Assembly: GCA_964436855.1 (NCBI GenBank)
Contig: CAYTED010000003.1
Coordinates: 33,393-97,392, forward strand
Direction of reading: 5' to 3'
Source of the DNA: an uncultured Bdellovibrionales bacterium
GTDB taxonomy: Bacteria > Patescibacteriota > Minisyncoccia > Moranbacterales > UBA1568
DNA: 64,000 bases
Below the pieces are notes generated by a model. The model saw only the letters and a list, made by a program, of their open reading frames with translations, had not been told where the DNA came from and ran no database searches. Positions within the stretch are counted from its first letter, which is position 1. Each line of letters begins with the position of its first letter. The translations under genes and the position numbers were made by a program. Shown piece by piece: positions 43,552 to 60,337 of the stretch.

Positions 43552-44401
43552 TCTCCCGAGATCGGCGCTCATACGCTTCAAATGCATGGGAAACCTGGAA
43601 CGCCTCCTTTTTCCGTGTCCCGAAAAACCAAATGATGGCTTTATTATAACGTTTTCTTAAGAAATAAGACATCCGGAACCAAATCCTCGCCCAGCCCTTC
43701 GAGTGTTTTTCAAAAAAGAGAAGCCCCGAAAGCACTAAATAAAAGATTTTTTTCGGGTTTCTCACGCTTACTTCCCGATGGAAAACCTTTGATTTTAGCT
43801 CTACAAAAAGCTTCCATCCGCCTTTTTTCAGACGGACCGACAAATCGGCATCTTCGTAATAGAGAAAAAACCGCTCATCAAACAGCCCTTCCTGCTCGAT
43901 CGCCTTTTTCCGTATAAAAAATGCGCAACCGGTCAGGTACCCCGTCTCGAAAGCATCTTTTTGAGACAACTCTCTTTGATGCATTGTCCGTATTCGAACA
44001 AAATCGATGCTTCCGCCGGCAAACCACACCTTTCCTTCCGGGAAAAGAATTATCGGGCTTGCGGCGCCGATTTTCGGGTATTTTTCAAGAAGCTCGACAA
44101 GATGCGTGAGCGAATCCGGGGCAACCGTTGCATCGTTATTGAGAAGCCAAAAAAAATCCGCACCACTTTCTTGCGCAGCGCGAATGCCCACATTCATTCC
44201 TCCGGCGAACCCGAGGTTTTGATCATTTTTGATCGTACGAACACCCGGAAATTTTTCAGTTATGCGAAAAGAATCATCGGCCGAATTATTGTCCACAACA
44301 AAAACCTCCCGATCCGTATATTTCAGAGAAAAAACGGATTGCAGGCACTGGCGTAAGCAATCCGCGCCATTGTAATTAAGAATAATAATAGCGACTTTCA
44401 T
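43517..44401 (-). CDS. Glycosyltransferase family 2
   Basis: VAIIILNYNGADCL...FVVDNNSADDS...LGFAGGMNVG GT2 signature. Confidence 0.8.
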   Translation of the reverse strand: MKVAIIILNYNGADCLRQCLQSVFSLKYTDREVFVVDNNSADDSFRITEKFPGVRTIKNDQNLGFAGGMNVGIRAAQESGADFFWLLNNDATVAPDSLTHLVELLEKYPKIGAASPIILFPEGKVWFAGGSIDFVRIRTMHQRELSQKDAFETGYLTGCAFFIRKKAIEQEGLFDERFFLYYEDADLSVRLKKGGWKLFVELKSKVFHREVSVRNPKKIFYLVLSGLLFFEKHSKGWARIWFRMSYFLRKRYNKAIIWFFGTRKKEAFQVSHAFEAYERRSRENAPPLNHLREL

Positions 44402-44416
44402 CCCCTCGAAATTCAA

Positions 44417-45883
44417 TCATTCTATATGCATATCCACGCTTGCTGCGGATTCCTTGGCAAGCCTTCTCCCCGAGAGAATAATATCGATCTCGTCGCGAGA
44501 AACTCCTCGGAAAAGCCAGAGGAGGGCAAGGTAGAGGAATACCGCCGCAAATCCAAGCACAAGAAACGGCATTGTTTTGTCAAAAAAGAAGAGAAATACA
44601 CCCATACCGAAGCCCGCGAGAAAAATTCGCCCGATTCCGGAAAATCCCGGAAAAAAAGCCGCGCTTTTCCAAGCAATAGAGGCCGAGAGAACAACAACGA
44701 GCATTTCCGTTAAAAGCGACGCGGTCGCCGACCCCATATAGGAAAACCTTGGAATAAGAAAGAGGTTGATTCCAATGTTGAATACCGCCGCGAGCGAAAG
44801 CGCCCACATTAATTTCTTCTGCGCGTTCGAAACAAGCACGATCATATTGAAATAATGCCCGAAAAAAATGAATGCGAGCGAAAAAACGAGGATTTCCAGA
44901 ACCGGAATCGATGCGACGAAGCTCTCCCCGCTCACAATGCGAATAATATCATCAGCGAGAAACATTGTTCCGACAAGAGTCGGCGTAACAATGATAAAAA
45001 ACACCTTGAAAGTCTTTTTGGCAATCGTTTCAAACTTCGCCCGATCAGATCGAATCGTGTGCGAAAGAAGCGGGATAATAAGCCCCGCGAGCATTGCCGG
45101 AAAAAAAACGAGGTTTTCCATCACTTTGTATGCGACATTGTAAATACCGACATCCGTACTTGATTGAAAAACCGAAAGAAGAATCGTGTCGAATTTGAAG
45201 TAAAGGAAGGTGATAATCGCGGTAATCCCCATCGGATACGATTCCCGAAGAAATTCTTTCCAGTACGAAGTATCAAACCGCAACGCGGCGGACACGTATC
45301 GACGACTCAAGAGAAATACCGTTACCGCATTGAATCCCATCGACACGAGGAGCGACGAAACCACCGCAAGAAATCCCCAGTCCGACATAATGGCAAACGC
45401 CACAAACGATACCTGAAGCACCTTTCCGATAAACTCCACCATCGCAACTCGATGCATCGCAACCCGTTTCTGAAAAACACCATTCAAAACAAGCGACATG
45501 GTCGAAAACACAATGGCGAATGCGCCGATCAAAATTCCCGCCTTCAAATCCTGCGAATAATCAAAAAAAAGAATGATGATCGGCGAAAGAAGAAAGACAC
45601 CGAATGACGAGAGGAGACGAAGCGAAAACACATTTCCAAGAATTTTTTGTTCATTGGCATTTTCGCGCGATATCTCCCGAACAGTAATCATTCCCATTCC
45701 GAGATCGGCCAATGCCGAAAAAAAGGCAAAAAATGCGAGTACGGTGGAATACCGGCCAAACCCCTCCGGCCCGAGATACCCGGTAATAAGCCGAATCGAA
45801 AAAAGCGACAAAAAAACCGTCGATACGACTTTCAGTATCGAGACAATAACCACGTTGTACGCTATTTTCCTCGCCAAAACCAT
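44417..45883 (-). CDS. wzx: Polysaccharide biosynthesis flippase (Wzx, MOP superfamily)
   Basis: 488 aa, ~12-14 TM helices, N-terminal region typical of PST/Wzx flippases. Confidence 0.75.
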   Translation of the reverse strand: MVLARKIAYNVVIVSILKVVSTVFLSLFSIRLITGYLGPEGFGRYSTVLAFFAFFSALADLGMGMITVREISRENANEQKILGNVFSLRLLSSFGVFLLSPIIILFFDYSQDLKAGILIGAFAIVFSTMSLVLNGVFQKRVAMHRVAMVEFIGKVLQVSFVAFAIMSDWGFLAVVSSLLVSMGFNAVTVFLLSRRYVSAALRFDTSYWKEFLRESYPMGITAIITFLYFKFDTILLSVFQSSTDVGIYNVAYKVMENLVFFPAMLAGLIIPLLSHTIRSDRAKFETIAKKTFKVFFIIVTPTLVGTMFLADDIIRIVSGESFVASIPVLEILVFSLAFIFFGHYFNMIVLVSNAQKKLMWALSLAAVFNIGINLFLIPRFSYMGSATASLLTEMLVVVLSASIAWKSAAFFPGFSGIGRIFLAGFGMGVFLFFFDKTMPFLVLGFAAVFLYLALLWLFRGVSRDEIDIILSGRRLAKESAASVDMHIE

Positions 45884-46423: not shown

Positions 46424-47197
46424 TTATTTCTTTACTTCTGTATGTTCCGCATGCTTCTCTTTGAAAATAAATTGCTGCTGAATAATAGTGAAAACCGTAG
46501 AAACAAGCCAGTACAGAGAAAGCCCCGCCGGAAACGTAATACCGACAAAAAGCGTCATCCCGGGTCCGAGAATAAGCATTTGCTTATTCATAATAGTCGC
46601 GAAGTCCGGCTTTTCATCCGATTGTTCCTCTTTCTTTTCCTTTTCTTTTCGCGCTTCTGCGGATTTTTTCTGCACATCAAGCATCATCTTGGTCTGATAA
46701 TACTGTGCCGCCGCCGCAAGAATCGCAAAAAGATAGCTCGGTTTCGCAAGATCGGCAATTCCGAAAAAGTGATGCGAGATCTCTCCGGGATGAGAAACAA
46801 AAGAGTAGAGTTGTGCGGCATCGACGGAAAATCCTGCCGCGGAAACGCTGATAATCGCCCGATAAATCGCAATCAGAAAAACGACCTGCACAATAAGCGG
46901 GAGGCACCCGGCAAACGGATTCACCTTATGCTCCTGATAGAGTTCCATAAGGGCTTTCTGTTGCGCCGCTTTGTCATCTTTGTATTTCCGTTGGATTTCC
47001 TTCGTGAGCGGTTGGATTTCCTGCAGCTCCTTTTGCGATTTGATTTGTTTTTTGTAGAGCGGAATAAAGAGGACTCTCAAAAGAAGGGTTGTCGCGATAA
47101 TCGCGAGGCCAAAATCGCTCCCCGGGATGGTATTGTAGAAAAAAATGAGCGAGTTATAAATCGGCTGAGCGACAAGAGTATGGAAAAGTTCAGTCAT
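46424..47197 (-). CDS. yidC: Membrane protein insertase YidC (short, Gram-positive type)
   Basis: 257 aa; conserved NPFAGCLPLIVQ helix and YidC/Oxa1 core. Confidence 0.9.
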   Translation of the reverse strand: MTELFHTLVAQPIYNSLIFFYNTIPGSDFGLAIIATTLLLRVLFIPLYKKQIKSQKELQEIQPLTKEIQRKYKDDKAAQQKALMELYQEHKVNPFAGCLPLIVQVVFLIAIYRAIISVSAAGFSVDAAQLYSFVSHPGEISHHFFGIADLAKPSYLFAILAAAAQYYQTKMMLDVQKKSAEARKEKEKKEEQSDEKPDFATIMNKQMLILGPGMTLFVGITFPAGLSLYWLVSTVFTIIQQQFIFKEKHAEHTEVKK

Positions 47198-47210
47198 AGG
47201 AATAAAAATA

Positions 47211-47558
47211 TTATTTTCGGATTTTTTGGAGGCATCCCGAAAGCGTGCGGGACACTTCTTCCAGTGTAAGCGATTCCGGCCGTTTCGTATAGAAGAAGGC
47301 GTATTCTCCCGCTGGAAAAAGCTTTTTTTTCAGATAATCACGGCTTGCTTCTCGGAGAAGTCTCTTTGCTCGATTTCGTTCCGTCGCTTTGCGAAAGTAT
47401 TTTTTCGATGCGATTACCGCTATTTTTACCTCTTTTCCTTTGTTTTCAGCGGAAAATACCACTTTCCCACCCAGAAAAAGATAAAAAAGGGGCTTTCCTT
47501 CACGAAAAACCCTTTCTATTTCCCCTGTACCGGTCATTCGATTTCCCTTGGGAAGCAT
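47211..47558 (-). CDS. rnpA: Ribonuclease P protein component
   Basis: LPKGNRMTGTGEIERVFREG...ERNRAKRLLREA RnpA signature. Confidence 0.85.
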   Translation of the reverse strand: MLPKGNRMTGTGEIERVFREGKPLFYLFLGGKVVFSAENKGKEVKIAVIASKKYFRKATERNRAKRLLREASRDYLKKKLFPAGEYAFFYTKRPESLTLEEVSRTLSGCLQKIRK

Positions 47559-47564
47559 ATCGCC

Positions 47565-47706
47565 TTTATACTGTCAGTCGCTTGCGCCCTTCACGGCGTC
47601 GCTTTGCAACGACTTTTCTCCCGTTTTTTGTTGACATCCGCTTCAAAAAGCCATGACGTCTTGTTCGGCGGCGTTTTTTCGGCTGATAGGTTCTCTTCGT
47701 GCTCAT
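47565..47706 (-). CDS. rpmH: 50S ribosomal protein L34 (apparent +1 frameshift near C-terminus)
   Basis: Not in the ORF track (<60 aa). The reverse-strand translation [42 protein letters not shown] is canonical L34. The conserved ending RLTV-stop is reached only if one G in AAGGCG is skipped. The in-frame reading instead runs to 47533. Confidence 0.75.
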
Positions 47707-47889
47707 ATCTCTGAAAAGCTTATTACAACACTCAAAAGAATACTTCCTTTTCAGAAAAAAGTCAAACGGTATGCGCTGTATGCCTCGTTATCCACTTATA
47801 CACCGGATATACACCAGCTTCCTCGATACCAATTTCGCTCCGTGATATAATGCTTTCGTTTTCTCTTTATCCCCCGTGAATATTCCCCT
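47707..47889. promoter_or_regulatory. rpmH-dnaA intergenic region: DnaA-box cluster and dnaA promoter (TATAAT at 47845-47850)
   Basis: TTATCCACT (47785-47793), TTATACACC and ATATACACC box-like repeats; GTGATATAATGC -10 element. Confidence 0.55.
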
Positions 47890-49332
47890 ATGACCAATGA
47901 AGAGCTCTGGAAAGCCGCACTTGGACAAATCGAGCTTTCCATTTCCAAGGCAAACTTCATAACGTGGTTTAAAAACACCGCCCTTCTCTCGATTTCCGAT
48001 GGATCGGTTTCTATCGCCGTCCCAAATGGATTCGCAAAAGAATGGCTTGAAAACAAGTACAATCTTTACATTCTTCGAGCGCTTCGGGATATTTCCGGAA
48101 CCGATATCAAAAAAATTCTCTGTATTATACAAGCCGAGCAAGGATCCACTCCTTCGGAACATCGGCCTCGCGGTCCGTTTATCGATGCCGTAAAAGCTCC
48201 GGAAAGGCTTTCTTTCGAACAAAACACGACTTATACACCGTCTTCACACACCCCGTCCGGCTCCTTTCAGCCGATTTCCATTGCAAAAAACGAACCCATT
48301 TACCCGCATCACTCTAATTTGAACCATCGGTATACTTTCGAAAATTTTATCGTTTCGGAGAACAACGAACTCGCCCGAGCGGCCTGTTATGCCGTTTCCC
48401 AAAATCCCGGAACTATCTACAACCCGCTTTTTATTTATGGCGGCGTCGGACTCGGGAAAACCCACCTTCTTCAATCTATCGGAAATGAACTCGTAAAAAA
48501 TCACCCGGAAAAACGCATTAAATACATTACTTCCGAACGATTTACCACCGAACTTGTCGATTCCATTCGCAATCAAACAATTGATAAATTTAAAGAATAC
48601 TACCAACATATCGACCTTCTCATTATCGATGATGTACAGTTTCTTTCCGGCAAAGAAAAGACGCAAAATGAATTTTTCCATATTTTTAATGCGCTCTACC
48701 AACTCAATAAACAAATTGTCATTTCGAGCGATCGACCACCACATGCCATCGCCACTCTTGAAGATCGGCTTCGCTCGCGATTCCAAGGCGGGATGATTAC
48801 TGATATCAGTCGTCCAAATTATGAGACACGAATCGCCATTCTTGAAGCGAAAATGCAAGAAAAAGGCTTTCTTCTCGATCGAGAATCAGTTCATTATATT
48901 TCGGAAAATATCACTCAAAACGTCCGCGAACTTGAGGGGGCGTTGAATCGTATTGTTGCGTACTGTGAATTTCACAAAATCACTCCTTCTCTCTCGGCGA
49001 CCCAAAAAATCCTCTCCCAACTCATTTTTCAAACTAAGAAAAACCTCCAAACCGAAGATATTTTCCGCATTATTACCGAATATTATAAAGTCGAAAAAGA
49101 CGATCTCATTCGAAAAGGACGGAAAAAGGAAATTTCCCATCCGCGACAGGTTGCAATGTACCTGATGCGAAGCGAGCTTCAAACTCCTTTCTCCAGTATT
49201 GGAGAAATTTTCGGCGGTCGAGATCACACCACCGCGCTTCACGCATTTGAAAAAATCCATCAAGACACCCAAGAAAATCAAAAAATAAAAGAGGAGCTCA
49301 ACACCCTAAAAGACCACCTTTATTATTCTTAA
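47890..49332 (+). CDS. dnaA: Chromosomal replication initiator DnaA
   Basis: 480 aa; AAA+ Walker A GGVGLGKTHL, sensor motifs and C-terminal DnaA-box-binding helix-turn-helix. Confidence 0.97.
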   Translation: MTNEELWKAALGQIELSISKANFITWFKNTALLSISDGSVSIAVPNGFAKEWLENKYNLYILRALRDISGTDIKKILCIIQAEQGSTPSEHRPRGPFIDAVKAPERLSFEQNTTYTPSSHTPSGSFQPISIAKNEPIYPHHSNLNHRYTFENFIVSENNELARAACYAVSQNPGTIYNPLFIYGGVGLGKTHLLQSIGNELVKNHPEKRIKYITSERFTTELVDSIRNQTIDKFKEYYQHIDLLIIDDVQFLSGKEKTQNEFFHIFNALYQLNKQIVISSDRPPHAIATLEDRLRSRFQGGMITDISRPNYETRIAILEAKMQEKGFLLDRESVHYISENITQNVRELEGALNRIVAYCEFHKITPSLSATQKILSQLIFQTKKNLQTEDIFRIITEYYKVEKDDLIRKGRKKEISHPRQVAMYLMRSELQTPFSSIGEIFGGRDHTTALHAFEKIHQDTQENQKIKEELNTLKDHLYYS

Positions 49333-49613
49333 ATACAATAATACGTGGATAACCTGTGAAAAACTCCTGTATAAATCCTTTCTTTCCTTGTGCACCCTGT
49401 GGATACTTTGTTAAAAAATACTTCAAAAAATTCTCTCCCTGAATATTTTTTCACTTTACCCCCTATTCATTCAGAATAAATCCCCAAAATCTCCCCCTAT
49501 GAATTCCTTATTTTCCCTTTTAATAAAACATTTCACTCACTTTTCCACTTATACACCACACTAATAGTAATAATATTTAATATATATTTAATTAATATTT
49601 ACTTTATAAACAT
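49333..49613. promoter_or_regulatory. oriC: Candidate oriC: DnaA boxes plus AT-rich DNA-unwinding element between dnaA and dnaN
   Basis: CGTGGATAA (49344-49352) and TGTGGATAC (49398-49406) are reverse-complement matches to TTATCCACA at 8/9. CCACTTATACACC is shared with the upstream spacer. 49560-49613 is ~90% A+T. Confidence 0.6.
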
Positions 49614-50765
49614 ATGAAAATTCTTTGTACTCAAGAAAATATTACAAAAGCTATCGGGTCACTCGAGCGAGTAACCGGAAAGCAATCAAGTCTCCCGATT
49701 CTTGCGAATTTTCTCCTGGAAACAAGTAAAGGACGACTGAAGATATCTGCTACTAATCTTGAAATCGGAGTGATTGCGCATATTGGAGCGAAAATCGAGC
49801 GTGAGGGAAAAATTGTGGTTCCGGCAAAACTTTTGAGTAGTTTTATTCATAACCTTCCAGAAGGGGATGTGGTTTCCTTAGAAACGGAAAATCAAACGCT
49901 TCATATCGTGAGCGGGAATTATGATATGAAGATAAAGGGATTTGAATCAAAGGATTTCCCGATCATTCCGCAGTTTGAAGAGGAATATCTCTTTTCCCTT
50001 CCAGCACAGTCGCTCAAAAATGCCCTTTCAAGACTTCTCCCGTGCGTTTCTCTTTCGGATACCCGTATTGAGCTCACGGGAGTGCATATCTTCTTTTTTG
50101 AAAAAGAGCTTCATTTGGCGGCGACGGATAGTTTTCGGCTCGGGGAAGAGATTTTTTCTCTCCAAGATCTTCCGGAAAAGGAAAAATACGATGTGTTCCG
50201 GGAAAAAACCGAAAGCCTTATCTTGCCGGCAACGACGCTTCAGGAAGTCGCCCGGGATATTTTTCCGGAAACAGAACGAGTGGAAATTATGGTTTCTGAA
50301 AATCAAATTTTCTTCCAAATCGGGGATATTCAAATTGTTTCGAGGCTTATCAATGGGAAATATCCGGATTATAAACAGATTATCCCCCAAAACTTCACCT
50401 TTAACGTGGAAATTGAGCGGGAGCTTCTTTTGCGGGCGATCCGGATCGGAAGTATGTTTTCGTCTCAAAGTTCCGGAGAAGTGAGTTTTCGGGTGATTCC
50501 GAACGATGAAATGGTGGTGGTGAAGGCGGTTTCTCGGGAAATCGGAGAAAACACCGTGAAAATACCGGCGAAAATAGAAGGAAATGGAGAAATAACGCTT
50601 ACCTTTAATCCGAGATATATTCTCGATGGGCTTTCGGTGACACATTCTTCAAAAGTGCTTTTCTCTTGCAATACGCCGCAAAGTCCCGCTTCTCTGCGAA
50701 TGGTTGATGAAAAAGGTTCCGTGATTTCCGATTTCCTTTATATTATGATGCCGGTCCGAAAGTGA
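49614..50765 (+). CDS. dnaN: DNA polymerase III beta sliding clamp
   Basis: 383 aa, three-domain clamp; N-terminal MKILCTQENITKAIGSLERV typical. Confidence 0.95.
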   Translation: MKILCTQENITKAIGSLERVTGKQSSLPILANFLLETSKGRLKISATNLEIGVIAHIGAKIEREGKIVVPAKLLSSFIHNLPEGDVVSLETENQTLHIVSGNYDMKIKGFESKDFPIIPQFEEEYLFSLPAQSLKNALSRLLPCVSLSDTRIELTGVHIFFFEKELHLAATDSFRLGEEIFSLQDLPEKEKYDVFREKTESLILPATTLQEVARDIFPETERVEIMVSENQIFFQIGDIQIVSRLINGKYPDYKQIIPQNFTFNVEIERELLLRAIRIGSMFSSQSSGEVSFRVIPNDEMVVVKAVSREIGENTVKIPAKIEGNGEITLTFNPRYILDGLSVTHSSKVLFSCNTPQSPASLRMVDEKGSVISDFLYIMMPVRK

Positions 50766-51273: not shown

Positions 51274-52035
51274 ATGAAGCTAAGACTTTGGACAGCAATT
51301 CTTTTGGTGCTATGTCTCGTGCGGATAGACATTATCACCGTTCCATCTCGACCACCGATGTATAGAGATCTAAAATACGTTAAATTTGATCCCAAACACA
51401 ACACCTTTTATGATTACGGGTTAAGTGTTGAAGGGTGGTGTGTGGTAAGTGGTGGTTTTGGTAGGGACCTATGCTCTAGGCCCGACCCTATACCCGCTAA
51501 GGATCAGCTAAAATTCTCTCTTCGAGAGGGAGTGCTAAGGGAGAGGAATTGGTCGTACCTTGTTGGCGCAATATATGTCACACAGAAACGTGTCTTAGAG
51601 CGCCTCTATGATGATATTGAAGGGAAAACGCATTACCTATTTAACTGTGCCGCGCCTCCTTTTACACCGCCAGGCATGAAAGTCGTTATGCATAATGGCA
51701 AGAGATACGCGTGGGACTTTTGTGTTGAGGTGTACTCGCCGCATAGCGAAACAAATAGTGAGTTTGTAAGGGGATATGATTATCTAAAAAAACTCGCCGG
51801 GCGACAGGCGCTAGACGCCACAACACTAGAATATCTTCTCTCAAATCCGTATCTCATACCGCTAAATTGGCGAAAACCAGGAATGCAAATTTTATTCCCT
51901 GGAACGATTTATGGGAATGAATTGGGGGTGTATCACTGTGGTCTACTTTTTAGCACGAATGGTCGGTGGTGCGCTTCGATTGTTCCTCTCGACACTGAAT
52001 GGGCCAACAATGTTGTAGCCGCGATCAAGGTATAA
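51274..52035 (+). CDS. Hypothetical secreted Cys-containing protein in a compositionally atypical cassette
   Basis: Own promoter (TTGACA-17-CATAAT at 51194-51222), strong RBS AAGGAGA and signal peptide. Codon usage is rich in CTA/AGA/AGG/ATA, unlike neighbouring genes. A 10-bp-stem terminator follows. Confidence 0.6.
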   Translation: MKLRLWTAILLVLCLVRIDIITVPSRPPMYRDLKYVKFDPKHNTFYDYGLSVEGWCVVSGGFGRDLCSRPDPIPAKDQLKFSLREGVLRERNWSYLVGAIYVTQKRVLERLYDDIEGKTHYLFNCAAPPFTPPGMKVVMHNGKRYAWDFCVEVYSPHSETNSEFVRGYDYLKKLAGRQALDATTLEYLLSNPYLIPLNWRKPGMQILFPGTIYGNELGVYHCGLLFSTNGRWCASIVPLDTEWANNVVAAIKV

Positions 52036-52089: not shown

Positions 52090-54696
52090 TCAATAACTCA
52101 CCGAGACGTTTTTGGAGGATTTTGCTTTGTTGCCGTTCTTATCTTTCACTTCGGCTTCTATTTCAAGCGTGGAATTGTTTTTTTCCGCCGGAATAGAGTA
52201 AGACACCAAGTAGGGCTTGCTCCCGCTTGAGCCGACTTCATTTCCATTCACCCTGTAAGTGACGCTTTCGACGCCATACTCCGCATTGACGCTTGCTTGA
52301 AGCGTGAGAGATGAGGAAGAGGTGCTTCCCGGGACGGAAAGAGAAATCAAGGGGAGATATTTTTTGAAGTCGTCTTGTTCGCATTCATTTTTTGGCGGAT
52401 CATCGACGACGAATTTCTTCCGGTTTTCTTTGTTTTCATACCAGTCTTTCACACCTTTTTCCCATGATTTGTATTGTGAATCGCGGTCGGGTTTGTCCGG
52501 GATCGGTCCCAATGGATCATCGCGGTTCACATAGGAGAGAATGTCGTGTCCGGAAACGAAATCCTTTTTCTCTACGTCTTTATCGCGACAGAATTTATTC
52601 GCGAGGCAGAATTTGTCATCTCCGATTTCACAGACCTTCACGTCTTCTTTCATATCAAGTTTGCCGTTTATCATCGGCTTGTCGACGAGGGTTTTCTCGG
52701 AATCTTTGTTGTCTTTGTCTTCGCCGTCTTTTTTCTCGGTATCGTTGTCTGTTTTGTATTCCGGAAACGATTCGACGGGGGAGTTTTGGAGCGCTTTGTC
52801 AATAAAATTTCGCCAAATCGGTGCGGCGACAACCGAACCATCCGCGCCCGGAGTCATCGCGGCGTTGTCGTTGTTCCCTACCCAGACGCCGACCGCGAGC
52901 GAGGGGGTAAAACCCATTGTCCAGGCATCGCGGAATTCATTTGTCGTTCCGGTTTTCGCGGCAACTTGGCGATTGTCGAAACGAAGCAAATTTTTCTCGC
53001 CGAAAACCGGTGCTCGGTAGTCGTTGGTCGACATTACATGGTCGAGCATCGCGACATATTTTTCATCTACGACGCGTTCCCCCGGGTTTTCTTTGTATTC
53101 CTCGAGCATCGTCCCATCGGTTCCTTCGATGCGGAGAATGGCGGTTTTTTCGCGTTTCACACCGCCTGCTGCGAGGGTCGCATAGGCGTGGGCGTGATCG
53201 ATAAGCTTCACTTCACCGCCACCCAAGACGAGCGAGAGTCCGTATCGATCGGGATAATTGAGCGTCGTGATACCAAGGTCTTTTGCCATTTTGGTTGCGT
53301 CTTTTACGCCAACCAAATAGAGTGTTTTGACCGCGGGAATATTGAGCGATTGCGGAAGTGCTTCTTTCATTGGGATCGGGCCGCGGAATTTTCCATCGTA
53401 ATTCTGCGGTTCGTATTTTTTTTCTTCATTCGTATCGAATTGCGTTGGTGTGTCGTAGAGAAGGGTGTCTGGCGAATAGCCCTTGGTAAACGCGGTAAGG
53501 TAGACATAGGGTTTGATAGAAGAGCCCGGCTGTCGTTCGCGGATGGCGACGTTTACATTGCCGTCGATCGAGGCATCAAAATAGTCTTTTGATCCGACCA
53601 TGGCGAGAATTTGACCGGTTTTCGGGTCGATTGCGACGAGCGCGGCGTTTGAAGCCTTCCATTTCGTTGCATTTTTTTCAACACCTTCGCGCACTGCTTG
53701 CTCGGCGGCCATTTGTTTGTCCCAATCAAGCGTCGTGTATACTTTGAAACCATTTTGTTCGATGGCGAGATCGCCGAATTTTGTCGCGAGGTATTCTTTT
53801 ACGTACATGACGAAGTGCGGCGCGGCGATAATGTCTTTTTGCGGGGAAATTTTTGCGAGAACATCTACAGCGATAGCTTCGTTTGCTTGATCTTCGCCGA
53901 TGTAACCGAGACGCGCCATCGTTTTCAGGGCGACCTCTTGGCGGATTTTGAGTTCATTGGTTCGGGATCCGTACGGGGAATAGCGGCTGGGAGCCTTCGG
54001 GAGCGAGGCGAGGAGCGCCGCTTCGTCGAGGGAGAGATCTTTGGCGGATTTTCCAAAATAAGTTTGCGAGGCCGCTTCGATACCGTAGGCGTTCATTCCA
54101 TACGGGATTTCATTCAAATACATCGCAAGGATCTCGTCTTTCGAGAATTTCTGCTCGATTTCGATCGAGAGAATAGCCTCTTTGATCTTTCGAACGATAG
54201 TTTTCTCATTGGTGAGGAGAGAGTTTTTCACAAATTGCTGGGTGATGGTGGATGCGCCTTGAGCTGCGCCTCGATGGAGGAGATCTTTTAAGGCGGCGCG
54301 GACAATTGAGGTAATTTTAATCCCATGGTGGGAGTAAAAATCTTGATCTTCGAGCGAAAGCGTTGCGGCACGAACAGCTTCTGGCATATCAGAGAAAGGG
54401 ATAACCGTGCGTCGTTCCTCCCCGTGCACTTCGTAGAGGAGGTGCTCGCCGGTGCGGTCGTAGATTTTGGTCGATTCGGCGATAAAGCGCTTGTTTACCT
54501 TGCCGGGACTCGGAAGGTCTTTCGCGACATAGGCAAACACGGCGATTGTCGAGAAGACGCCGATAACAAAGAGAAAAAGAGTGAATTTTACACAAAAACG
54601 AAAGAATTTCCGCCATTTTGAGCGGTTTTTCGGTTTTTCTTCGCGGGGATCTTCATCTCGCGCCTTTTTCGGCCGCAAGAAGTGAATAATGGTCAT
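52090..54696 (-). CDS. Class A penicillin-binding protein (PBP1A: GT51 glycosyltransferase + transpeptidase) with long C-terminal extension
   Basis: N-terminal TM; GT51 motifs (GASTITQQF), transpeptidase SSIKP / KTG motifs; 868 aa. Confidence 0.92.
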   Translation of the reverse strand: MTIIHFLRPKKARDEDPREEKPKNRSKWRKFFRFCVKFTLFLFVIGVFSTIAVFAYVAKDLPSPGKVNKRFIAESTKIYDRTGEHLLYEVHGEERRTVIPFSDMPEAVRAATLSLEDQDFYSHHGIKITSIVRAALKDLLHRGAAQGASTITQQFVKNSLLTNEKTIVRKIKEAILSIEIEQKFSKDEILAMYLNEIPYGMNAYGIEAASQTYFGKSAKDLSLDEAALLASLPKAPSRYSPYGSRTNELKIRQEVALKTMARLGYIGEDQANEAIAVDVLAKISPQKDIIAAPHFVMYVKEYLATKFGDLAIEQNGFKVYTTLDWDKQMAAEQAVREGVEKNATKWKASNAALVAIDPKTGQILAMVGSKDYFDASIDGNVNVAIRERQPGSSIKPYVYLTAFTKGYSPDTLLYDTPTQFDTNEEKKYEPQNYDGKFRGPIPMKEALPQSLNIPAVKTLYLVGVKDATKMAKDLGITTLNYPDRYGLSLVLGGGEVKLIDHAHAYATLAAGGVKREKTAILRIEGTDGTMLEEYKENPGERVVDEKYVAMLDHVMSTNDYRAPVFGEKNLLRFDNRQVAAKTGTTNEFRDAWTMGFTPSLAVGVWVGNNDNAAMTPGADGSVVAAPIWRNFIDKALQNSPVESFPEYKTDNDTEKKDGEDKDNKDSEKTLVDKPMINGKLDMKEDVKVCEIGDDKFCLANKFCRDKDVEKKDFVSGHDILSYVNRDDPLGPIPDKPDRDSQYKSWEKGVKDWYENKENRKKFVVDDPPKNECEQDDFKKYLPLISLSVPGSTSSSSLTLQASVNAEYGVESVTYRVNGNEVGSSGSKPYLVSYSIPAEKNNSTLEIEAEVKDKNGNKAKSSKNVSVSY

Positions 54697-54787
54697 ACAA
54701 GGCTTGTTTAAGGGAAATTTTTATTTTCCACTAAGCCGATTGTACAAGAAAGAAGAGTATTTTTCAAGGTTATTGAACCAATTGCCT

Positions 54788-55726
54788 TTAAGCGGGGAGG
54801 TTAAATATATCTCTCAAAATCGGACGGATAACCATTTGGGGCTGCCCACTTGTTGGGTAATAGTGTATACGAAGATCGGGATATGTATTGGCCTCAAGGA
54901 AGTATACGGACTGCTCTTTCGGTGAAAGGGAAATGTTTTCACAAATAATATCAATTCCGCTTAAATCGAGATTGAGCGCCTTAAGGGATTTCCACGCAAG
55001 AGAGAGAAGCTCCGGGTGCACTTCAGCGGTGCAGTCGCGCGTAGACCCCCCTTCTGAAAGCCGGGAATTTTCTTGAAGACGAACGACCGTATTTTTTTCA
55101 GGGATATTTTTCAGTGTAAGCCCATTCTTTTTCAGTGTTGTCTGAACAGCAGGCGAGAGAATAATTTTTTTTAGAGCATTGATATTTTTCAAATCAATAA
55201 GTTCTTGGATGGTATTTTTTCCATTTCCGATAACGTGAGGGGGAATCATTTGAAGCGCTCCTAAGAGTTTCCCTTTATACAGGAGGAGCCTGTATTCATT
55301 TCCGGTAACCATTTGCTGGACAAGGAAGCTTTTTGAATATGTTTGTGCGACAAGAAAAAGCTCGTCGACACTCTGAATATTCATATGCACATTCATACTT
55401 TTTGATCCGCCGGATTCCTTAGTGATAAGCGGAAAAGAAAGACTGATGGATGTGATAGATTTTTTAAACTCCTCAAAGTTTTTGAAATGATGAAAAGCCG
55501 GGTGAGGAACTCCTTCTTCTTGCCAAAGAGCGTACGAAATCGCCTTGTCTTTTGAAAAACGATAAATTTCCATATAGGGATCGCGCGCTACGGAAAACAA
55601 CTCACATACAAGCAGTGATCTTGATTTATTAAAGATTCGAAATAAATGCTTTGAATCGGAAATAATTTTTGTTTCCAAGCCGAGTGCTGTAGCCTCGGAA
55701 AGAATGAGTTGAGAATTTTTTGTCAT
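54788..55726 (-). CDS. ATP-grasp amidoligase, cyanophycin-synthetase-N-terminal-like
   Basis: ATP-grasp C-terminal half GIDIICENIS...FLEANTYPDLRIHYYPTSGQP resembles the CphA N-terminal ligase domain; no Mur-ligase domain; start at MTKNSQL. Confidence 0.55.
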   Translation of the reverse strand: MTKNSQLILSEATALGLETKIISDSKHLFRIFNKSRSLLVCELFSVARDPYMEIYRFSKDKAISYALWQEEGVPHPAFHHFKNFEEFKKSITSISLSFPLITKESGGSKSMNVHMNIQSVDELFLVAQTYSKSFLVQQMVTGNEYRLLLYKGKLLGALQMIPPHVIGNGKNTIQELIDLKNINALKKIILSPAVQTTLKKNGLTLKNIPEKNTVVRLQENSRLSEGGSTRDCTAEVHPELLSLAWKSLKALNLDLSGIDIICENISLSPKEQSVYFLEANTYPDLRIHYYPTSGQPQMVIRPILRDIFNLPA

Positions 55727-55730
55727 AAAT

Positions 55731-56618
55731 TTATTTTTTTCTGGCACTTGAATATTTAGAGAGTGCATAGTCGATAATAAACGAAGAGGGGTCAATCCCC
55801 GTCACTTCCTTCAGTTTTTTCCATTGAGGAGCGCTGTTTACTTCAAGAACACAATATTTACCATCTTGTTTTTTGATGATATCTACTCCTGCAATCTCAT
55901 AATTCATTACTTGAGCAGCGTCAAGAGCAAGTTTTTTTATTTGCGGCGTTAGGGCGATACGAGACGCCTTTGCGCCAAGAGATGCGTTAGAGCGAAAATC
56001 TCCTTGAAGAATGTGTCGTTTCATTCCGGCAACAACTTGATTGCCGACAACAAAAACCCGAATATCTCCGTCGATAGGAAGGTATTCTTGTAAGAAATAA
56101 CCCCGGTTATTTTTTCTTAAAAATTCTTTTGCCTCTTGAAAATTTTCAAATTTTTTAATGCCATTTCCTTTGCTTCCAAATATTGGCTTTGCGATGATAG
56201 GAAGTCCTATTTTCTCTATTACAAAAGAAAGATCTCGTGCGGATAAGGCCTGTGCGGTTTGCGGATGTGGGATATGGTGTTGATGAAACTGACTCGCTTG
56301 AAATATTTTGTCTCCGAAAAATCCCTCTTTGCCAAGATCGTCATTAACAATGATTTTCTTCTGGTTGAGGAGATATTGAGCAAGGACGGAAACTGCCGGG
56401 CGAACCATTCGGTATCCTCCACGGAAAAGAAAAATATCACAGTCGAGCAAGTTTATATTTTTATAAATAAATACGGGCTCATTTTCTGAAAATGTGATTA
56501 TGATATTCTTCATGCGAACAGGAATCGCAATATGACCTCTTCGGATAATTTCTTCTATGAGGTCTTTGGCGTGTACTCCGGGACGGCCCCCGATAATGGC
56601 AAATTTCAATTTTTTCAT
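55731..56618 (-). CDS. rimK: RimK-family alpha-L-glutamate ligase (ATP-grasp)
   Basis: KPIFGSKGNGI, DIRVFVVGNQVVAGMKR, GDFRSNASLGA, VDIIKKQDGKYCVLEVNSAPQW: canonical RimK motifs; start at MKKLKFAIIGG. Confidence 0.8.
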   Translation of the reverse strand: MKKLKFAIIGGRPGVHAKDLIEEIIRRGHIAIPVRMKNIIITFSENEPVFIYKNINLLDCDIFLFRGGYRMVRPAVSVLAQYLLNQKKIIVNDDLGKEGFFGDKIFQASQFHQHHIPHPQTAQALSARDLSFVIEKIGLPIIAKPIFGSKGNGIKKFENFQEAKEFLRKNNRGYFLQEYLPIDGDIRVFVVGNQVVAGMKRHILQGDFRSNASLGAKASRIALTPQIKKLALDAAQVMNYEIAGVDIIKKQDGKYCVLEVNSAPQWKKLKEVTGIDPSSFIIDYALSKYSSARKK

Positions 56619-56637
56619 ATAACTAAGGGGCGTTGGA

Positions 56638-58047
56638 TTAATTTTTTGAAACATCGATAAGAAATTTCCCGAGATTTTTTCTTCCGATGATAACCGGGTA
56701 TTCGAGTTGTGAGCGATCAACAATAGAAGCTCGGGCTGAAATTTCAATACCATCAAGCAAAAGAGAACACTTCACTTTTGGGCGCAAGCTCACGCCACTT
56801 GATGAGTAGACGACGATAAGATCATCGAGATCCGGGTGCTTTCCGAGGTGTTCTTTTCTGATGTTTGCTTCAAATTCTTTCACGATTTCTCTGGGTATTT
56901 CTACCGGCTTTTTTATGTTTGAAAAATACTCCAATACGGAGGAAAACCCGAGCTCTCTCGCAAGCCCGGTATCAATTGAAGTCGAGTCCGCGCCGGTGTC
57001 GATTTTTGCTTCGACTTCAATCTCTTTTCCATTTTTACCGATAAGCTTTACTTTTTCAACCGTGCCAATGACACGTCGCCCAGAAAGCTCTTCGATTTCT
57101 TCTTCAATTTCACCACCGAAGAGATTCATTCCGAGGCGAACGCCACGCTCAGTTGTTTTAATTTTGATATCCCGAACACGGTCGAGGCGACTCTTTAATC
57201 CATCGAAGTTTGCAAGTTGAATAGAGAGGCCTGGACGTGCATTGAGCTCGAGAATTACGGGGCCGCGATCGCGATCAATCGCTACATCCGCACCAAGAAA
57301 TCCGAGGCCGGAGATTTTCTGCGCGTCAACCGCCATAGTGAGAATTTGTTTCCAATACGGAATTTTGATACCGGAGAGGGCGAGGCGCGTTCCCGGGACG
57401 TGCTCGATAATGGTTCCTTTGCCGACGATAGCGCTTGTTGTGGTACCTGTCGCCATATCGATCCCAACGCCGATCGCGCCCTGCTGGAGATTTGCTTTAC
57501 CGTCGGAGGCGCGTGTTGGAAGTCGGAGCATTGCCATTACCGGTACGGAATTAAAAATGATCACGCGGATGTCGGGGATTCCTTTGAAAGAATATGGCTT
57601 GAAGAGCTTGAGGAGTTTGAGGCGCTCTTCGAAGAAAGCAATGTCGGGTGTGTTAGACAGAGAAAACGATCCATCGAGAATGTTTTGGATATGAATTTTC
57701 AAATCATCAACGGTTACTATTGATCCGTCGGCTTTTACCCAAGCGTCTTCACGGCCCTTCTTCCGCGCATAGACAACGAGAATACCCTCACCGCCGAAAC
57801 CGCGGTTTGGTTTGAGTGCAAAACTATCGGGGAGCCTCGACCAGTCAAACCGATCGAGCTCGTCGTGATTTCGAATTTTTCCGATAAGCCCAGGGACAGG
57901 GAGGCTGGCATCAGAGAGCGTTTTTTTGCAGAGGAGTTTTCGGTCGGCAATTCGCATTCCGCGCTTGCGGTTGAATGGGCGCACATACCCAAGGTTACGT
58001 GCGTTCATCCCGAGCAATTTTCGGCTTTTTCGAAAAAATTCAAACAT
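56638..58047 (-). CDS. RimK-related alpha-L-glutamate-ligase-like ATP-grasp fused to C-terminal retropepsin-like aspartic protease (RimB/DUF785-like)
   Basis: N-terminal GMNARNLGYVRPFNRKRGMRIADRKLLCKKTL and the ATP-grasp core ILELNARPGLS. The C-terminal IGTVEKVKLIGKNGKEIEVEAKIDTGADSTSIDTGLA has a DTGA active site. Confidence 0.65.
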   Translation of the reverse strand: MFEFFRKSRKLLGMNARNLGYVRPFNRKRGMRIADRKLLCKKTLSDASLPVPGLIGKIRNHDELDRFDWSRLPDSFALKPNRGFGGEGILVVYARKKGREDAWVKADGSIVTVDDLKIHIQNILDGSFSLSNTPDIAFFEERLKLLKLFKPYSFKGIPDIRVIIFNSVPVMAMLRLPTRASDGKANLQQGAIGVGIDMATGTTTSAIVGKGTIIEHVPGTRLALSGIKIPYWKQILTMAVDAQKISGLGFLGADVAIDRDRGPVILELNARPGLSIQLANFDGLKSRLDRVRDIKIKTTERGVRLGMNLFGGEIEEEIEELSGRRVIGTVEKVKLIGKNGKEIEVEAKIDTGADSTSIDTGLARELGFSSVLEYFSNIKKPVEIPREIVKEFEANIRKEHLGKHPDLDDLIVVYSSSGVSLRPKVKCSLLLDGIEISARASIVDRSQLEYPVIIGRKNLGKFLIDVSKN

Positions 58048-58068
58048 ACCCGCGTCGGTGAGCGCGAA

Positions 58069-58725
58069 TTAGAGGTACTTGAAAATACGGCGAAATCGCC
58101 AGTATTCCGAGAGACGGAGCCCCGACCATTTGCCGAGGACGATGTTGATTGGGAAAACAAGCAATATCGCCCACGGATAGGCGAGAAGAAACTCTCGAAT
58201 CGATTCGGCACGGATAACGGCGTATCCAGCAAGTGAAATAACAAGTGTTTCGGCGGCGAGAATGAGCGCCACGCGATTTCCTTTCTCAATCTGTGTCGCA
58301 ACAAATTTTTCCGCAAGGGTGATCATAATAAGGAGTGGGAAAATCGAAATCGCCGCGAGGCCGGTGCGTTGAAAGTATCCGCCCGAGACGAGGATGCCGA
58401 GGATGACGAGTGAGATAATCGAGAGTGTGATCGCGACGCGTGGGAGATAGAGGAGACGGAATGGCTTGAGAAGATAGCGCGCGAGCGTCCCGACGGCGAT
58501 GACCGCGATGAAGACGGCGATCCCGTATTTGAGGCCGTTCGGATCGAAAGCGAGAAAAGCGAATGTAACGATCGACGGTGTATAAATGCCAAATGCTTTG
58601 ATGCCGATAACTTGGCGAAAAAACGCAACGAGGGTCGCAACGACTGGAAGAAGCAAAAGGAGTGCGACCGTTTCAAGCGGCACGCCTTCGTTTATGAAAA
58701 AGGTGATAATGGGATGGAGATTCAT
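58069..58725 (-). CDS. Seven-TM membrane protein (7TM module of the type usually fused to an inactive transglutaminase)
   Basis: 218 aa, seven hydrophobic helices; 4-nt overlap with ruvC and directly upstream of the ATP-grasp genes in the same orientation. Confidence 0.5.
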   Translation of the reverse strand: MNLHPIITFFINEGVPLETVALLLLLPVVATLVAFFRQVIGIKAFGIYTPSIVTFAFLAFDPNGLKYGIAVFIAVIAVGTLARYLLKPFRLLYLPRVAITLSIISLVILGILVSGGYFQRTGLAAISIFPLLIMITLAEKFVATQIEKGNRVALILAAETLVISLAGYAVIRAESIREFLLAYPWAILLVFPINIVLGKWSGLRLSEYWRFRRIFKYL

Positions 58726-59222
58726 ACACTTCCAGTTTTTCTTAGGGATTCCACTTTTCTTCGGCTTGCGTGGCAGAGAGCGATTGCGAGAGCGTCCGCG
58801 GTATCGTCGGGCTTTGGAATTGTTTTGAGTTTCAAGACAGCTTTCACCATCAATTGTACTTGTGTTTTGTCCGCTTTCCCATAATTCGTCAAGGCTTGCT
58901 TGACTTCGAGAGGGGTGTAGCCTGCAATACTAACACGGAGGTGCTCTAAAGTCAAGAGAATAACGCCTCGTGCTTGGGCGACGGAAATCGCCGTTTTTTG
59001 GTTATTAAAGAAGAAAAGTTCCTCCACGCCCGCCTCTTTTGGCTTCCATTTTTTGACGATTTTTTCGATATCGTCCGCGATTTCAGTAAGTCGCTTTTCG
59101 AGGGGCAAATCTTTGCTCGTTGAAATATGTCCGTACGCGACGGATTCCGGCTTTCCATTATTTATTTCAATAACCCCCCAGCCGACGGTCGCGGTTCCGG
59201 GATCGATACCGAGGATACGCAT
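58722..59222 (-). CDS. ruvC: Crossover junction endodeoxyribonuclease RuvC
   Basis: MRILGIDPGTATVGWGVIE catalytic Asp and RNase H-like fold, 166 aa. Confidence 0.92.
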   Translation of the reverse strand: MRILGIDPGTATVGWGVIEINNGKPESVAYGHISTSKDLPLEKRLTEIADDIEKIVKKWKPKEAGVEELFFFNNQKTAISVAQARGVILLTLEHLRVSIAGYTPLEVKQALTNYGKADKTQVQLMVKAVLKLKTIPKPDDTADALAIALCHASRRKVESLRKTGSV

Positions 59223-59357
59223 AAATCATGTAGCAATTAACAGCGAACAAATAATACAAGCTAAGAATAGGTTGAAAAAACACTCTTGTCATTCCGGGTT
59301 TCTTTATTTGGTGCAACTGAACCGGAACGCCAATTTTCTTATTGTTGAATTGGTATG

Positions 59358-60164
59358 TTACGAAAAATAATTGTTCAAATCCACTTTTTTTCCAAGCCGA
59401 GTCAATATTGAAAAGAGTATCTTAAATGTTTCAGCGACTTCTCTTCCTCGAATAATCATGGCAACGTCTCGTCTCATGACCGTAATTACGAGAAAGTCTT
59501 TAAAGCAGAAAATATCAGTGTCAAAATTCAGGGCATCATCGGGGAGAATGTAGCCGATGACGAGACGGCCGGTATGGGCGCGCTTCACTTCGGGATTGGT
59601 CGCTTGGATAAGCTTAATGGTTGTTTGTGAACACACCGCCTCAAGAATAACCCCTTTTTTCTTGAAAGCAGATTGCCAGGCTACGATAGTTTCGGTATGT
59701 AGATGAGAAAGTTTTTGTCTGGCAGACCCGGTTCCCTCGATAAAATATGCTCGTTCCCCGGACGGAAGATCGAGAATCATTTTATATGCTGCACGAAAAC
59801 CCGTTTTTGTAGTATGGAGTTCGATTGAATAGTGGGAGCGAACACGCTCCTCATTGAGGAGTGATTGGAGTAAGGGAATCTCTTCTTTTAATTCTTTTAC
59901 ATGTTCATCGAGCATTCTTGCGAGCGCATCAAGATCGGAACATTCATATTCGAAGTGTTTTCTGATTTTTATTCGAGAGACTAATTCATGGGCGAGTAAT
60001 CGATTGATAATAGGGTAGAGAGTAGTGCGGGGGAGGCCGGTGTCTTTTGCAAGATCAGTGATTCGTGAGCTGCCGTGCTTGAGGAGCGCAAAAAAGACAC
60101 AGATTTCCTTCTCTGAAAATCCAAAAGCCAACAGCGCCTCCTTTGTTTTTTGCGCATTCTTCAT
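59358..60164 (-). CDS. TrmB-family transcriptional regulator
   Basis: N-terminal wHTH (LAFGFSEKEICVFFALLKHGSSRITDLAKDTGLPRTTLYPIINRL) plus C-terminal TrmB-like domain. Confidence 0.7.
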   Translation of the reverse strand: MKNAQKTKEALLAFGFSEKEICVFFALLKHGSSRITDLAKDTGLPRTTLYPIINRLLAHELVSRIKIRKHFEYECSDLDALARMLDEHVKELKEEIPLLQSLLNEERVRSHYSIELHTTKTGFRAAYKMILDLPSGERAYFIEGTGSARQKLSHLHTETIVAWQSAFKKKGVILEAVCSQTTIKLIQATNPEVKRAHTGRLVIGYILPDDALNFDTDIFCFKDFLVITVMRRDVAMIIRGREVAETFKILFSILTRLGKKVDLNNYFS

Positions 60165-60337
60165 AGTTAAACTATACAAAACGTCGAATATTTAGTCAAA
60201 ACAATATTTAATATTATGGCTTTCATAAAATAATAATTTGGTAATTGTATTTAACACGTCTTTATTCCAGACATTTTAAAAAATTTTTGCTTTATTTGGT
60301 GCAGGCAATATCGCCTGTCATTTAAGAGGTTTTTCTT

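Follow-up and report, generated by a model that had tools for sequence, protein, structure and literature searches.

A seven-transmembrane (7TM) protein, three ATP-grasp ligases and an aspartic protease are encoded by four genes downstream of ruvC in an uncultured bacterium, and the question raised by this locus is what these proteins make. The genes, which we number from the ruvC side, lie tightly packed and all co-directional on the minus strand at 54788-58725 of a 64,000-nt stretch of contig CAYTED010000003.1 (assembly GCA_964436855.1, positions 33,393 to 97,392), the whole of which we call the window. An initial annotation, made from the letters alone, had listed four co-directional genes after ruvC, and this layout was borne out. 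Profile and structure searches show a two-gene core, predicted to consist of an RloB-like 7TM protein and an RloC-type ligase that carries a C-terminal retropepsin of the RloA/RimB type. The locus is very probably homologous to the Rlo system. By a narrow balance, we favor the reading that it is a version of Rlo from the candidate phyla radiation (CPR), here from Moranbacteria, in which a membrane-coupled ligase would make a poly-Glu-like product and the protease would cut it, with accessory ligases that vary.

The two proteins of the core

Gene 1 (58069..58725, minus strand) encodes the RloB-like 7TM membrane protein, which has 218 aa and no ectodomain. It matched PF14402 (7TM_transglut) in a profile search with an E-value of 5.7e-28, and it aligned solely to positions 309-507 of the 508-position NCBIfam RloB model, which are the C-terminal 7TM part. 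The maximal open reading frame (ORF) is itself 218 aa long, and the N-terminal inactive transglutaminase ectodomain of RloB was not found in it. Identity to Legionella RloB is 29% over 202 residues (RloB residues 310-505; E 4e-21). Both hydropathy and an AlphaFold2 (AF2) model (pTM 0.70) give seven transmembrane (TM) helices, which together with the PF14402 match upholds the 7-helix membrane protein of the initial annotation. Because the C-terminal tail is basic, the protein is predicted to share the topology of RloB, with its N-terminus out and its tail in. Invariant charged or polar residues are found within or beside the helices (R37, K43, D61, R96, E139 and E159).

Across CPR, the 7TM proteins fall into three length classes of about 215-250 aa (the class in the window), about 275-336 aa and about 470-553 aa; in the longest forms, Pfam gives a PKD domain and not a transglutaminase. 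An internal repeat in the 7TM protein was also considered and rejected, as hhalign of helices 1-3 against helices 4-6 was empty and the sole match was an overlap of the query cuts.

Gene 2 (56638..58047, minus strand) encodes a 469-aa chain in which, by profile and structure searches, an RloC-type ATP-grasp ligase is fused to a RimB/RloA-type retropepsin. A RimK-related ligase of this length, ending in a retropepsin-like DTGA protease, had been proposed at the outset, and the profiles agree with it (PF14397/TIGR02291-type for the ligase and PF05618 for the protease). The ATP-grasp (ATPgrasp_ST) domain occupies residues 17-291 (57175..57999, minus strand) and matched PF14397 with 232 bits (cut-off 31.4; E 9e-69). 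Its residues K79, D254, E267 and N269 are invariant among gene 2 homologues, and all three ligases of the operon (genes 2, 3 and 4) retain the ATP-grasp motifs, namely the Lys of K-P-x-x-G, the D/E-x-N metal ligands and the Arg. Aligned over 286 residues, the ligase domain and Legionella RloC share 41% identity (E 9e-73), and Foldseek matched the domain to ArgX, LysX, RimK and PsnB.

The retropepsin-like aspartic protease domain spans residues 326-467 (56647..57072, minus strand), with the catalytic DTGA at residues 350-353 (56989-57000, minus strand). It scored 30.7 bits against PF05618 (cut-off 27). The NCBIfam models of RloA1-3 all matched it (E 6e-8 for RloA3), and the NCBIfam RimB model gave no match at E <= 0.01. 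The domain was modeled by AF2 with a pLDDT of 85-94, and its top Foldseek matches were P. fluorescens RloA (9g58), Legionella Lpg0085 (2pma) and P. aeruginosa RloA2 (9g59). Identity to Legionella RloA is 28% over 151 residues (E 1e-6). Four residues of the domain, K348, D350, R422 and R445, are invariant in 29 homologues. In alignments to 9g58 and Legionella RloA, K348, R422 and R445 align with K46, R114 and R137 of RloA, and D350 aligns with the catalytic D48; the spacing between R422 and R445 is 23 residues, equal to that in RloA. The match to P. aeruginosa RloA numbering (K46, R114 and R137) is based on spacing, 9g58 being the P. fluorescens protein. In RloA, these three conserved residues hold poly-Glu beside the catalytic D48 (PMC12239564).

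The location of this protease appears to differ from that of its secreted relatives. We found neither a TM segment nor a signal peptide in the gene 2 product (maximum KD19 1.42), from which the protease is predicted to be cytoplasmic. The protease domain has one Cys only, and it should therefore lack the disulfide of the periplasmic RloA.

Between the two domains lies a conserved acidic linker helix, LFGGEIEEEIEELSG (residues 309-323; 57079..57123, minus strand), defined by the alignment of homologues. Among 29 Moranbacteria-type homologues, 11 of its 15 positions are invariant and the other 4 vary only conservatively; in contrast, the middle of the protease domain is variable. In distant CPR relatives, both fused and unfused, the linker is less acidic and becomes 'LFAxxFADRVKAEEG'. 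Since relatives of the protease cut Glu runs, the acidic part of the linker, EIEEEIEE, could conceivably serve the fused protease as a site of self-processing or priming, and we assign this idea a low probability. The minimum run is at least 5 Glu for RimB (PMC11957791) and at least 8 Glu for RloA in vitro (PMC12239564). Counting against self-cleavage, the motif has no contiguous poly-Glu run, is predicted to be helical and loses acidity in the distant members.

Conservation and fusion of the core in other genomes

We scanned one genome per GTDB species, with an aligned set of fused proteins as the query, and obtained at least 596 relatives. Locus counts were taken from the best 80; the ORFs of these loci were labeled by phmmer against reference proteins, and the denominators differ by feature. 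By informative title or synteny, the 80 loci are CPR/Patescibacteria, and the lineages among them include Moran-, Pacei-, Dojka-, Kerfeld-, Falkow-, Woese-, Levy-, Nomura-, Kaiser-, Peregrini-, Gracili- and Peribacteria. Some metagenome-assembled genomes carry the names Bdellovibrionales or Gammaproteobacteria, which look like placeholders because their loci share Moranbacteria synteny and up to 74% identity. At 68-76% identity to gene 2, there are more than 100 clusters, and every named one is Moranbacteria or Moraniibacteriota; we accordingly place the window organism in Candidatus Moranbacteria (CPR/Patescibacteria). The complete genome of one relative measures 1.2 Mb.

The 7TM gene is located directly upstream of the fusion gene, on the same strand, at 75 of 76 loci, and the gene neighborhood is conserved to that extent, in favor of the initial annotation. 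Extra ATP-grasp genes follow downstream at 39 of 67 loci (none at 28, one at 16, two at 18 and three at 5), while RuvC is encoded upstream at 29 of 66. Among species representatives of Moranbacteria, the ligase domain has a median identity of 72% to its window counterpart and the 7TM protein one of 65%, compared to 63.5% for PBP1A, encoded downstream of the operon, and 62% for RuvC. The RimK-type and CphA-type neighbors are only 25-39% identical (range). Since the accessory ligases are replaced, divergent or missing in relatives, the conserved unit is the 7TM protein together with the ligase-protease, and the other ligases are a variable cassette. The proposal that the whole operon acts as one amidoligase system therefore survives for this core, whereas the RimK and CphA-like ligases are swappable accessories.

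Gene fusions in other organisms bear on how the core proteins are arranged. We searched 1.84 billion cluster representatives, which returned 2227 relatives, and performed Pfam scans on selected ones. Many cluster representatives are single chains of about 790 aa that combine the ligase, the retropepsin and a MATCAP domain (PF08014). Other chains join the ligase and retropepsin to YdjC (P0149) or to a second ATP-grasp (P0175), and in P0297 the 7TM_transglut domain is fused directly to the ligase. Unfused ligase relatives of about 315 aa are also present. On a plasmid of Halobacterium sp. DL1 (CP007061.1; locus L088, 4164-5918), we found an unannotated single chain of 584 aa with the architecture 7TM_transglut::ATPgrasp_ST; at this locus there was no retropepsin match and no unannotated ORF of at least 100 aa beside it. 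The existence of 7TM::ligase fusions argues for docking of the ligase at the C-terminal end of the 7TM protein, on its cytoplasmic side, and fusions of the ligase-retropepsin-MATCAP type argue that endo- and carboxy-peptidases act on the ligase product.

Several related loci carry further genes of these families. A MATCAP-family metallopeptidase (tubulin detyrosinase family; NCBIfam 'QEGLA motif protein') and a YdjC deacetylase stand in the operon at L002 10438-12472 and L003 6888-8922; the MATCAP gene of L002 is split into two ORFs and may be a pseudogene. Three proteins (P0150, P0157 and P0161) show the MATCAP/YdjC association with the ligase-protease in other CPR. A second, stand-alone retropepsin gene (about 160 aa, PF05618) directly follows the fusion gene at L030 4332-4805 and L054 2843-3334. 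PADLOC defense-system models did not match any of the four window proteins at E <= 0.01.

The accessory ligases

Gene 3 (55731..56618, minus strand) encodes a RimK-family, alpha-L-glutamate-ligase-like ATP-grasp protein of 295 aa, counted from M47. The maximal ORF extends over 55731-56756, and the likely start at M47 (56618) is supported by an independent gene call on Logan contig L001. The protein passed the TIGR00768 cut-off (170.5 bits; cut-off 143.4), and among PDB entries it aligned best, and end to end, to the RimK structures of Pseudomonas and E. coli (E 2.5e-28). Against the S6-ligase equivalog NF007764, it scored 93.2 bits, where the cut-off is 331, and an S6-specific ligase was thus not recognized. 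The initial annotation had called this gene a canonical RimK, which is right for the family. In species-representative Moranbacteria loci, RimK-type counterparts are few and 25-39% identical.

Gene 4 (54788..55726, minus strand) encodes a stand-alone ATP-grasp protein of 312 aa, of the type found in the G domain of cyanophycin synthetase and the C-terminal half of GshAB. We placed its start at M24; the database protein P0121 is identical, with 312 aa. It aligned to positions 211-471 of TIGR02068 (E 1.5e-52), scoring 178.7 bits against a cut-off of 850, and to PDB chains of CphA1 (7lg5, E 3e-31), and it also resembles the GshAB C-terminal ligase and N-acetylglutaminylglutamine synthetase. Within its 312 aa there is neither a CphA N domain nor a Mur-like M domain. 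The earlier view of gene 4 as a CphA-like ATP-grasp was correct except for the domain, which corresponds to the G domain of CphA1 and not to the N domain. At the same position, L002 has a 30%-identical CphA-like ligase, before which a YdjC gene, a 90-aa ORF and a MATCAP-family peptidase gene are inserted, and L004 has an unrelated GSH-S-like ligase. The profile searches did not reduce the ligases of the operon to ordinary Ddl or glutathione-synthetase paralogs, in agreement with the initial annotation.

Comparison with Rlo and other known systems

The rlo operon of P. aeruginosa consists of rloA, which encodes a secreted retropepsin, rloB, which encodes an inactive transglutaminase joined to a 7TM region, and rloC, which encodes an ATP-grasp (Lormand et al., mBio 2025, PMC12239564), and RloA is periplasmic in Pseudomonas (PMC12239564). 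Once all three RloA paralogs are missing, the cells do not survive low-salt medium and are impaired in cell shape, biofilm formation and antibiotic tolerance, and deletion of rloB or rloC rescues the triple rloA mutant (PMC12239564). The rescue implies that RloB and RloC make something that the protease must remove. The initial annotation had likened the window operon to predicted peptide-tail systems without naming rloABC; the likeness holds, and rloABC is its experimentally studied relative (PMC12239564).

As a reference, we used the rloABC operon on a Legionella adelaidensis plasmid (L086), where the three proteins are annotated as 'RimK/LysX family protein' (152 aa), 'inactive transglutaminase family protein' (508 aa) and 'alpha-L-glutamate ligase-like protein' (314 aa), and score 99.7 bits on RloA2, 472 on RloB and 436 on TIGR02291, respectively. 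The window operon shares with Rlo the linkage of a PF14402 7TM protein, a PF14397/TIGR02291 ATP-grasp and a PF05618 retropepsin in one operon, and its protease keeps the DTG motif and the poly-Glu-binding basic residues. It differs in several respects. The window protease is fused to the C-terminus of the ligase, whereas RloA is separate and secreted, with a signal peptide and a disulfide. The window 7TM protein lacks the inactive transglutaminase ectodomain of about 300 aa, in place of which other CPR have PKD. The gene order is B then C::A, compared to A-B-C in rlo, and one to three extra ATP-grasp ligases are attached in CPR. Moreover, the host is a CPR bacterium, while 96% of RloB hits are in Proteobacteria (PMC12239564).

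A cytoplasmic retropepsin paired with an ATP-grasp ligase is also found in the RimABK/RimBK systems. The RimB-RimK pair trims and builds the poly-Glu tail of ribosomal protein S6 in the cytoplasm (Little et al., JBC 2025, PMC11957791); RimB cleaves poly-Glu, binds RimK and stimulates free poly-Glu synthesis, and a RimB::RimK hybrid with the protease at the N-terminus is known (PMC11957791). The likeness to the window operon extends to the existence of a protease-ligase hybrid and to the RimK-family gene. However, the RimBK protease is N-terminal to a true RimK, whereas the window protease is C-terminal to an ATPgrasp_ST ligase, the Rim systems have no 7TM partner, and gene 3 is far below the S6-ligase equivalog cut-off.

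The remaining comparisons concern single components or concepts. Gene 4 aligns over the whole ATP-grasp G domain of CphA1 (a likeness to CphA1/GshAB), but it stands alone, without N and M domains, and its position in the operon is not conserved. The poly-gamma-glutamate synthase PgsBCA and its depolymerase share a concept with the window system, as an ATP-dependent amide ligase is coupled to the membrane, an acidic polymer is exported and a hydrolase controls its length; PgsB is Mur-ligase-like and not an ATP-grasp, and the families are unrelated to the window proteins. Among the tubulin-tail enzymes, the pairing of builders (TTL/TTLL ATP-grasp ligases) with a trimmer (the MATCAP carboxypeptidase) is mirrored in the ligase-protease-MATCAP fusions and neighbors of other CPR, but there is no MATCAP gene in the window and the analogy is functional only. 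Neighborhoods of this kind were reportedly first predicted by comparative genomics by Iyer et al. in 2009, as cited in later work. Our literature search on the Pfam/TIGRFAM names and on a link to CPR found no paper that describes the CPR version.

A proposed mechanism and its limits

In the mechanism that we propose, the ligase would sit at the cytoplasmic face of the 7TM protein. There, it would use ATP to polymerize an acidic product or to attach it, and a product resembling poly-alpha-glutamate is the most likely one. The retropepsin domain would act as a homodimer, like RloA and RimB, and cut this product, thereby limiting its length or amount, or releasing it, and the 7TM protein would export the product or present it at the envelope. 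The RimK-family and CphA-G-like ligases would add further residues; since these accessory ligases differ between species, the product probably differs as well. Lacking a signal peptide and being part of a cytoplasmic enzyme, the protease should trim in the cytoplasm, unlike the periplasmic RloA of Pseudomonas. A possible reason for the fusion is that a secreted protease may be lost from a cell without an outer membrane, so that trimming was moved to the cytoplasm. The mechanism fits the Pseudomonas genetics, in which the product is harmful unless the protease removes it, and it fits the stimulation of RimK by RimB.

A number of observations weigh against this mechanism. Gene 2 scored 289.5 bits against TIGR02291, under the cut-off of 314.2, as the linker takes the place of the last 26 positions of the model. 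For the ligase domain plus linker, AF2 gave a model of only moderate to poor quality (mean pLDDT 65.5). For the whole family, Pseudomonas RloC included, poly-Glu as the product would follow only from the relatives of the protease and three conserved basic residues. A cytoplasmic protease also fits poorly with synthesis, export and then trimming outside. Finally, because the 28 of 67 related loci noted above have no accessory ligase, the RimK-type gene 3 and gene 4 may do something separate.

Alternative explanations

Two alternatives place the product on other substrates. In a RimK/RimB-type tailing system, RimK would polyglutamylate S6 or another cytoplasmic protein C-terminus, the fused retropepsin would trim the tail, and the 7TM protein would be incidental or regulatory. 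Gene 3 does pass the RimK-family cut-off and has true RimK enzymes as its best solved relatives, the protease is predicted to be cytoplasmic like RimB, and RimB-RimK hybrids are known (PMC11957791). We nevertheless consider tailing unlikely, as gene 3 reaches only 93 bits against the 331-bit equivalog cut-off for S6 ligases, RimK-type genes are hypervariable and absent from many related loci, the protease is fused to an RloC-type ligase instead of RimK and matches the RloA models but not RimB at E <= 0.01, and a near-obligate 7TM partner has no place in S6 modification. We found no S6 gene (rpsF) among the window ORFs or in 85 related loci, no run of at least 5 acidic residues in any window ORF and no poly-acidic ORF in the related loci examined, an absence that does not exclude tailing. 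Alternatively, the ligases could decorate the envelope by attaching amino acids or short peptides to peptidoglycan, a glycan or a lipid-linked precursor, which the 7TM protein would hold or flip. The proximity of the PBP1A gene had been taken as such an envelope hint, and the linkage is seen again in several CPR classes: at 21 of 52 loci, PBP1A is encoded on the same strand no more than 6 kb downstream, and in L050 and L051 it is the immediate neighbor. Some loci have YdjC-type sugar deacetylases, either as a fusion or as an adjacent gene, the Pfam label of the ligase family is 'sugar-transfer associated', rlo mutants of Pseudomonas show phenotypes in cell shape and toward beta-lactams, and in Vibrio the regulator VxrAB, which responds to cell-wall damage, induces rloABC (PMC12239564). 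On the other hand, PBP1A is not nearby at 31 of 52 loci, its synteny block includes ruvC, dnaN and dnaA and may be a conserved gene order near the origin, YdjC occurs at only 2 of 80 loci, and the conserved poly-Glu-binding residues of the protease point to a peptide and not a glycan. The linkage to PBP1A thus remains a hint, and decoration seems improbable to us.

The role of the 7TM protein could also be one of sensing. As a sensor of the envelope or osmotic state, it would switch the ligase-protease on or off, and the product, either an acidic peptide or a protein that has been modified, would not leave the cytoplasm. This would suit the predicted cytoplasmic location of the CPR protease, the relation of rlo phenotypes to osmotic stress (PMC12239564) and the extracellular PKD of the long CPR forms or the inactive transglutaminase of the proteobacterial forms, which look like ligand-binding modules. 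Yet the Moranbacteria 7TM form has no ectodomain at all and is highly conserved, its invariant R37, K43, D61, R96, E139 and E159 in or beside the helices would suit a translocation path, and the periplasmic protease in Pseudomonas means that the product must reach the outside there; we judge a sensor to be quite improbable. Least credible among the products are a storage polymer of the cyanophycin type and a small osmolyte, for instance a dipeptide amide, which the similarity of gene 4 to the CphA1 G domain, the GshAB C-terminal ligase and N-acetylglutaminylglutamine synthetase might suggest. The cyanophycin-like polymer put forward in the initial annotation is unlikely because gene 4, with 312 aa and 178.7 bits against the 850 cut-off, lacks the M and N domains. 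In addition, gene 4 is replaced by unrelated ligases or missing in related genomes, no cyanophycinase is present, and a dipeptide osmolyte would not need an endoprotease with poly-Glu-binding residues. We regard such a product as highly improbable.

Organization of the operon and its surroundings

The ruvC gene (58722..59222, minus strand), recognized by PF02075 on the identical Logan contig L001, precedes the four genes. The ATG of gene 1 overlaps the ruvC stop by 4 nt (ATGA), and because of this overlap ruvC and the 7TM gene are probably co-transcribed. The other three junctions are short gaps of 21 nt (end of gene 1 to start of gene 2), 19 nt (end of gene 2 to the likely M47 start of gene 3) and 4 nt (end of gene 3 to the M24 start of gene 4 at 55726), so that only one of the 4-nt and short overlaps described in the initial annotation stands. 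Upstream of ruvC, two overlapping sigma-70-like matches at 59251..59292 (minus strand), identified by consensus match only, are a candidate operon promoter. A pattern scan gave no convincing terminator inside the four-gene cluster. Downstream of gene 4, by 91 nt, lies the gene of a PBP1A-type bifunctional peptidoglycan synthase (52090..54696, minus strand), which phmmer matched to syntenic genes of L002-L005 annotated Transgly plus Transpeptidase; a promoter-like site of PBP1A at 54739-54767 was found by consensus scan and is a pattern match only. Convergent with PBP1A is a 253-aa ORF (51274-52035, plus strand) with a signal-peptide-like N-terminus and no Pfam/NCBIfam match. On the other side, upstream of ruvC, a TrmB/Lrs14-like helix-turn-helix regulator is encoded at 59358-60179 (minus strand), with a promoter-like site at 60171-60199, and it has the same position in the Moranbacteria loci L001-L003, L015, L024, L056 and L061.

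The window probably contains the chromosomal origin: yidC (minus strand), dnaA (47890-49332, plus strand) and dnaN (49614-50765, plus strand) lie together within 46424-50765, and the cumulative GC-skew minimum is at 48-50 kb of the window. The operon would then be located 5-10 kb from the origin, on the lagging strand. The order PBP1A-DciA-dnaN-dnaA is the same in L004. Farther away, a surface-glycan cluster at 40330-45883 (minus strand) encodes two Wzy_C (O-antigen-ligase-like) proteins, two GT2 glycosyltransferases and a Wzx-type flippase. An Rfam group I intron was detected at 29756-29998 (minus strand; flank to 29700) with 56.6 bits (gathering score 50), and directly 3' of it are a tRNA-like T-arm and the 3' half of an acceptor, GGTCGTTGGTTCGATTCCAACCGGTCCCACA. 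The intron probably interrupts a tRNA gene not reported by ARAGORN; simple in-silico splicing of the Rfam intron did not yield a tRNA that ARAGORN recovered.

Implications for the CPR and for the Rlo family

Four features of the CPR version of Rlo are new here: the ligase::protease fusion in C::A order, the 7TM protein without an ectodomain, the hypervariable ligase cassette, and the wide distribution across CPR together with an archaeal 7TM::ligase example. A bolder possibility, which we hold only tentatively and think doubtful, is that the 7TM protein and ligase-protease are a previously unrecognized, ribosome-independent machine for peptide-polymer synthesis and export, widespread in CPR and present as a single fused chain in archaea. 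Its conserved core would make an acidic backbone, and a fast-evolving ligase cassette, with MATCAP-type trimmers in some lineages, would give a species-specific surface or envelope peptide. If so, the machine would be the equivalent, in prokaryotes, of the enzymes by which tubulin tails are made and shortened, and it might matter when these episymbionts encounter hosts or phages.

The Pseudomonas work of 2025 linked Rlo to cell shape, to biofilm formation and to the tolerance of osmotic stress and antibiotics (PMC12239564), and the CPR form adds constraints beyond that work. Because ligase and protease share one polypeptide, they should act on the same molecule in the same compartment; because the ligase is fused to the 7TM protein in other lineages, the chemistry should take place at the membrane; and the CPR 7TM form implies that the transglutaminase-like ectodomain is dispensable. 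Among Moranbacteria species, the core is more conserved than PBP1A or RuvC, which argues for an important function in organisms whose relatives have genomes of about 1.2 Mb. The family is thereby extended well beyond Proteobacteria, and its single-chain versions offer simple constructs for the biochemistry of the product.

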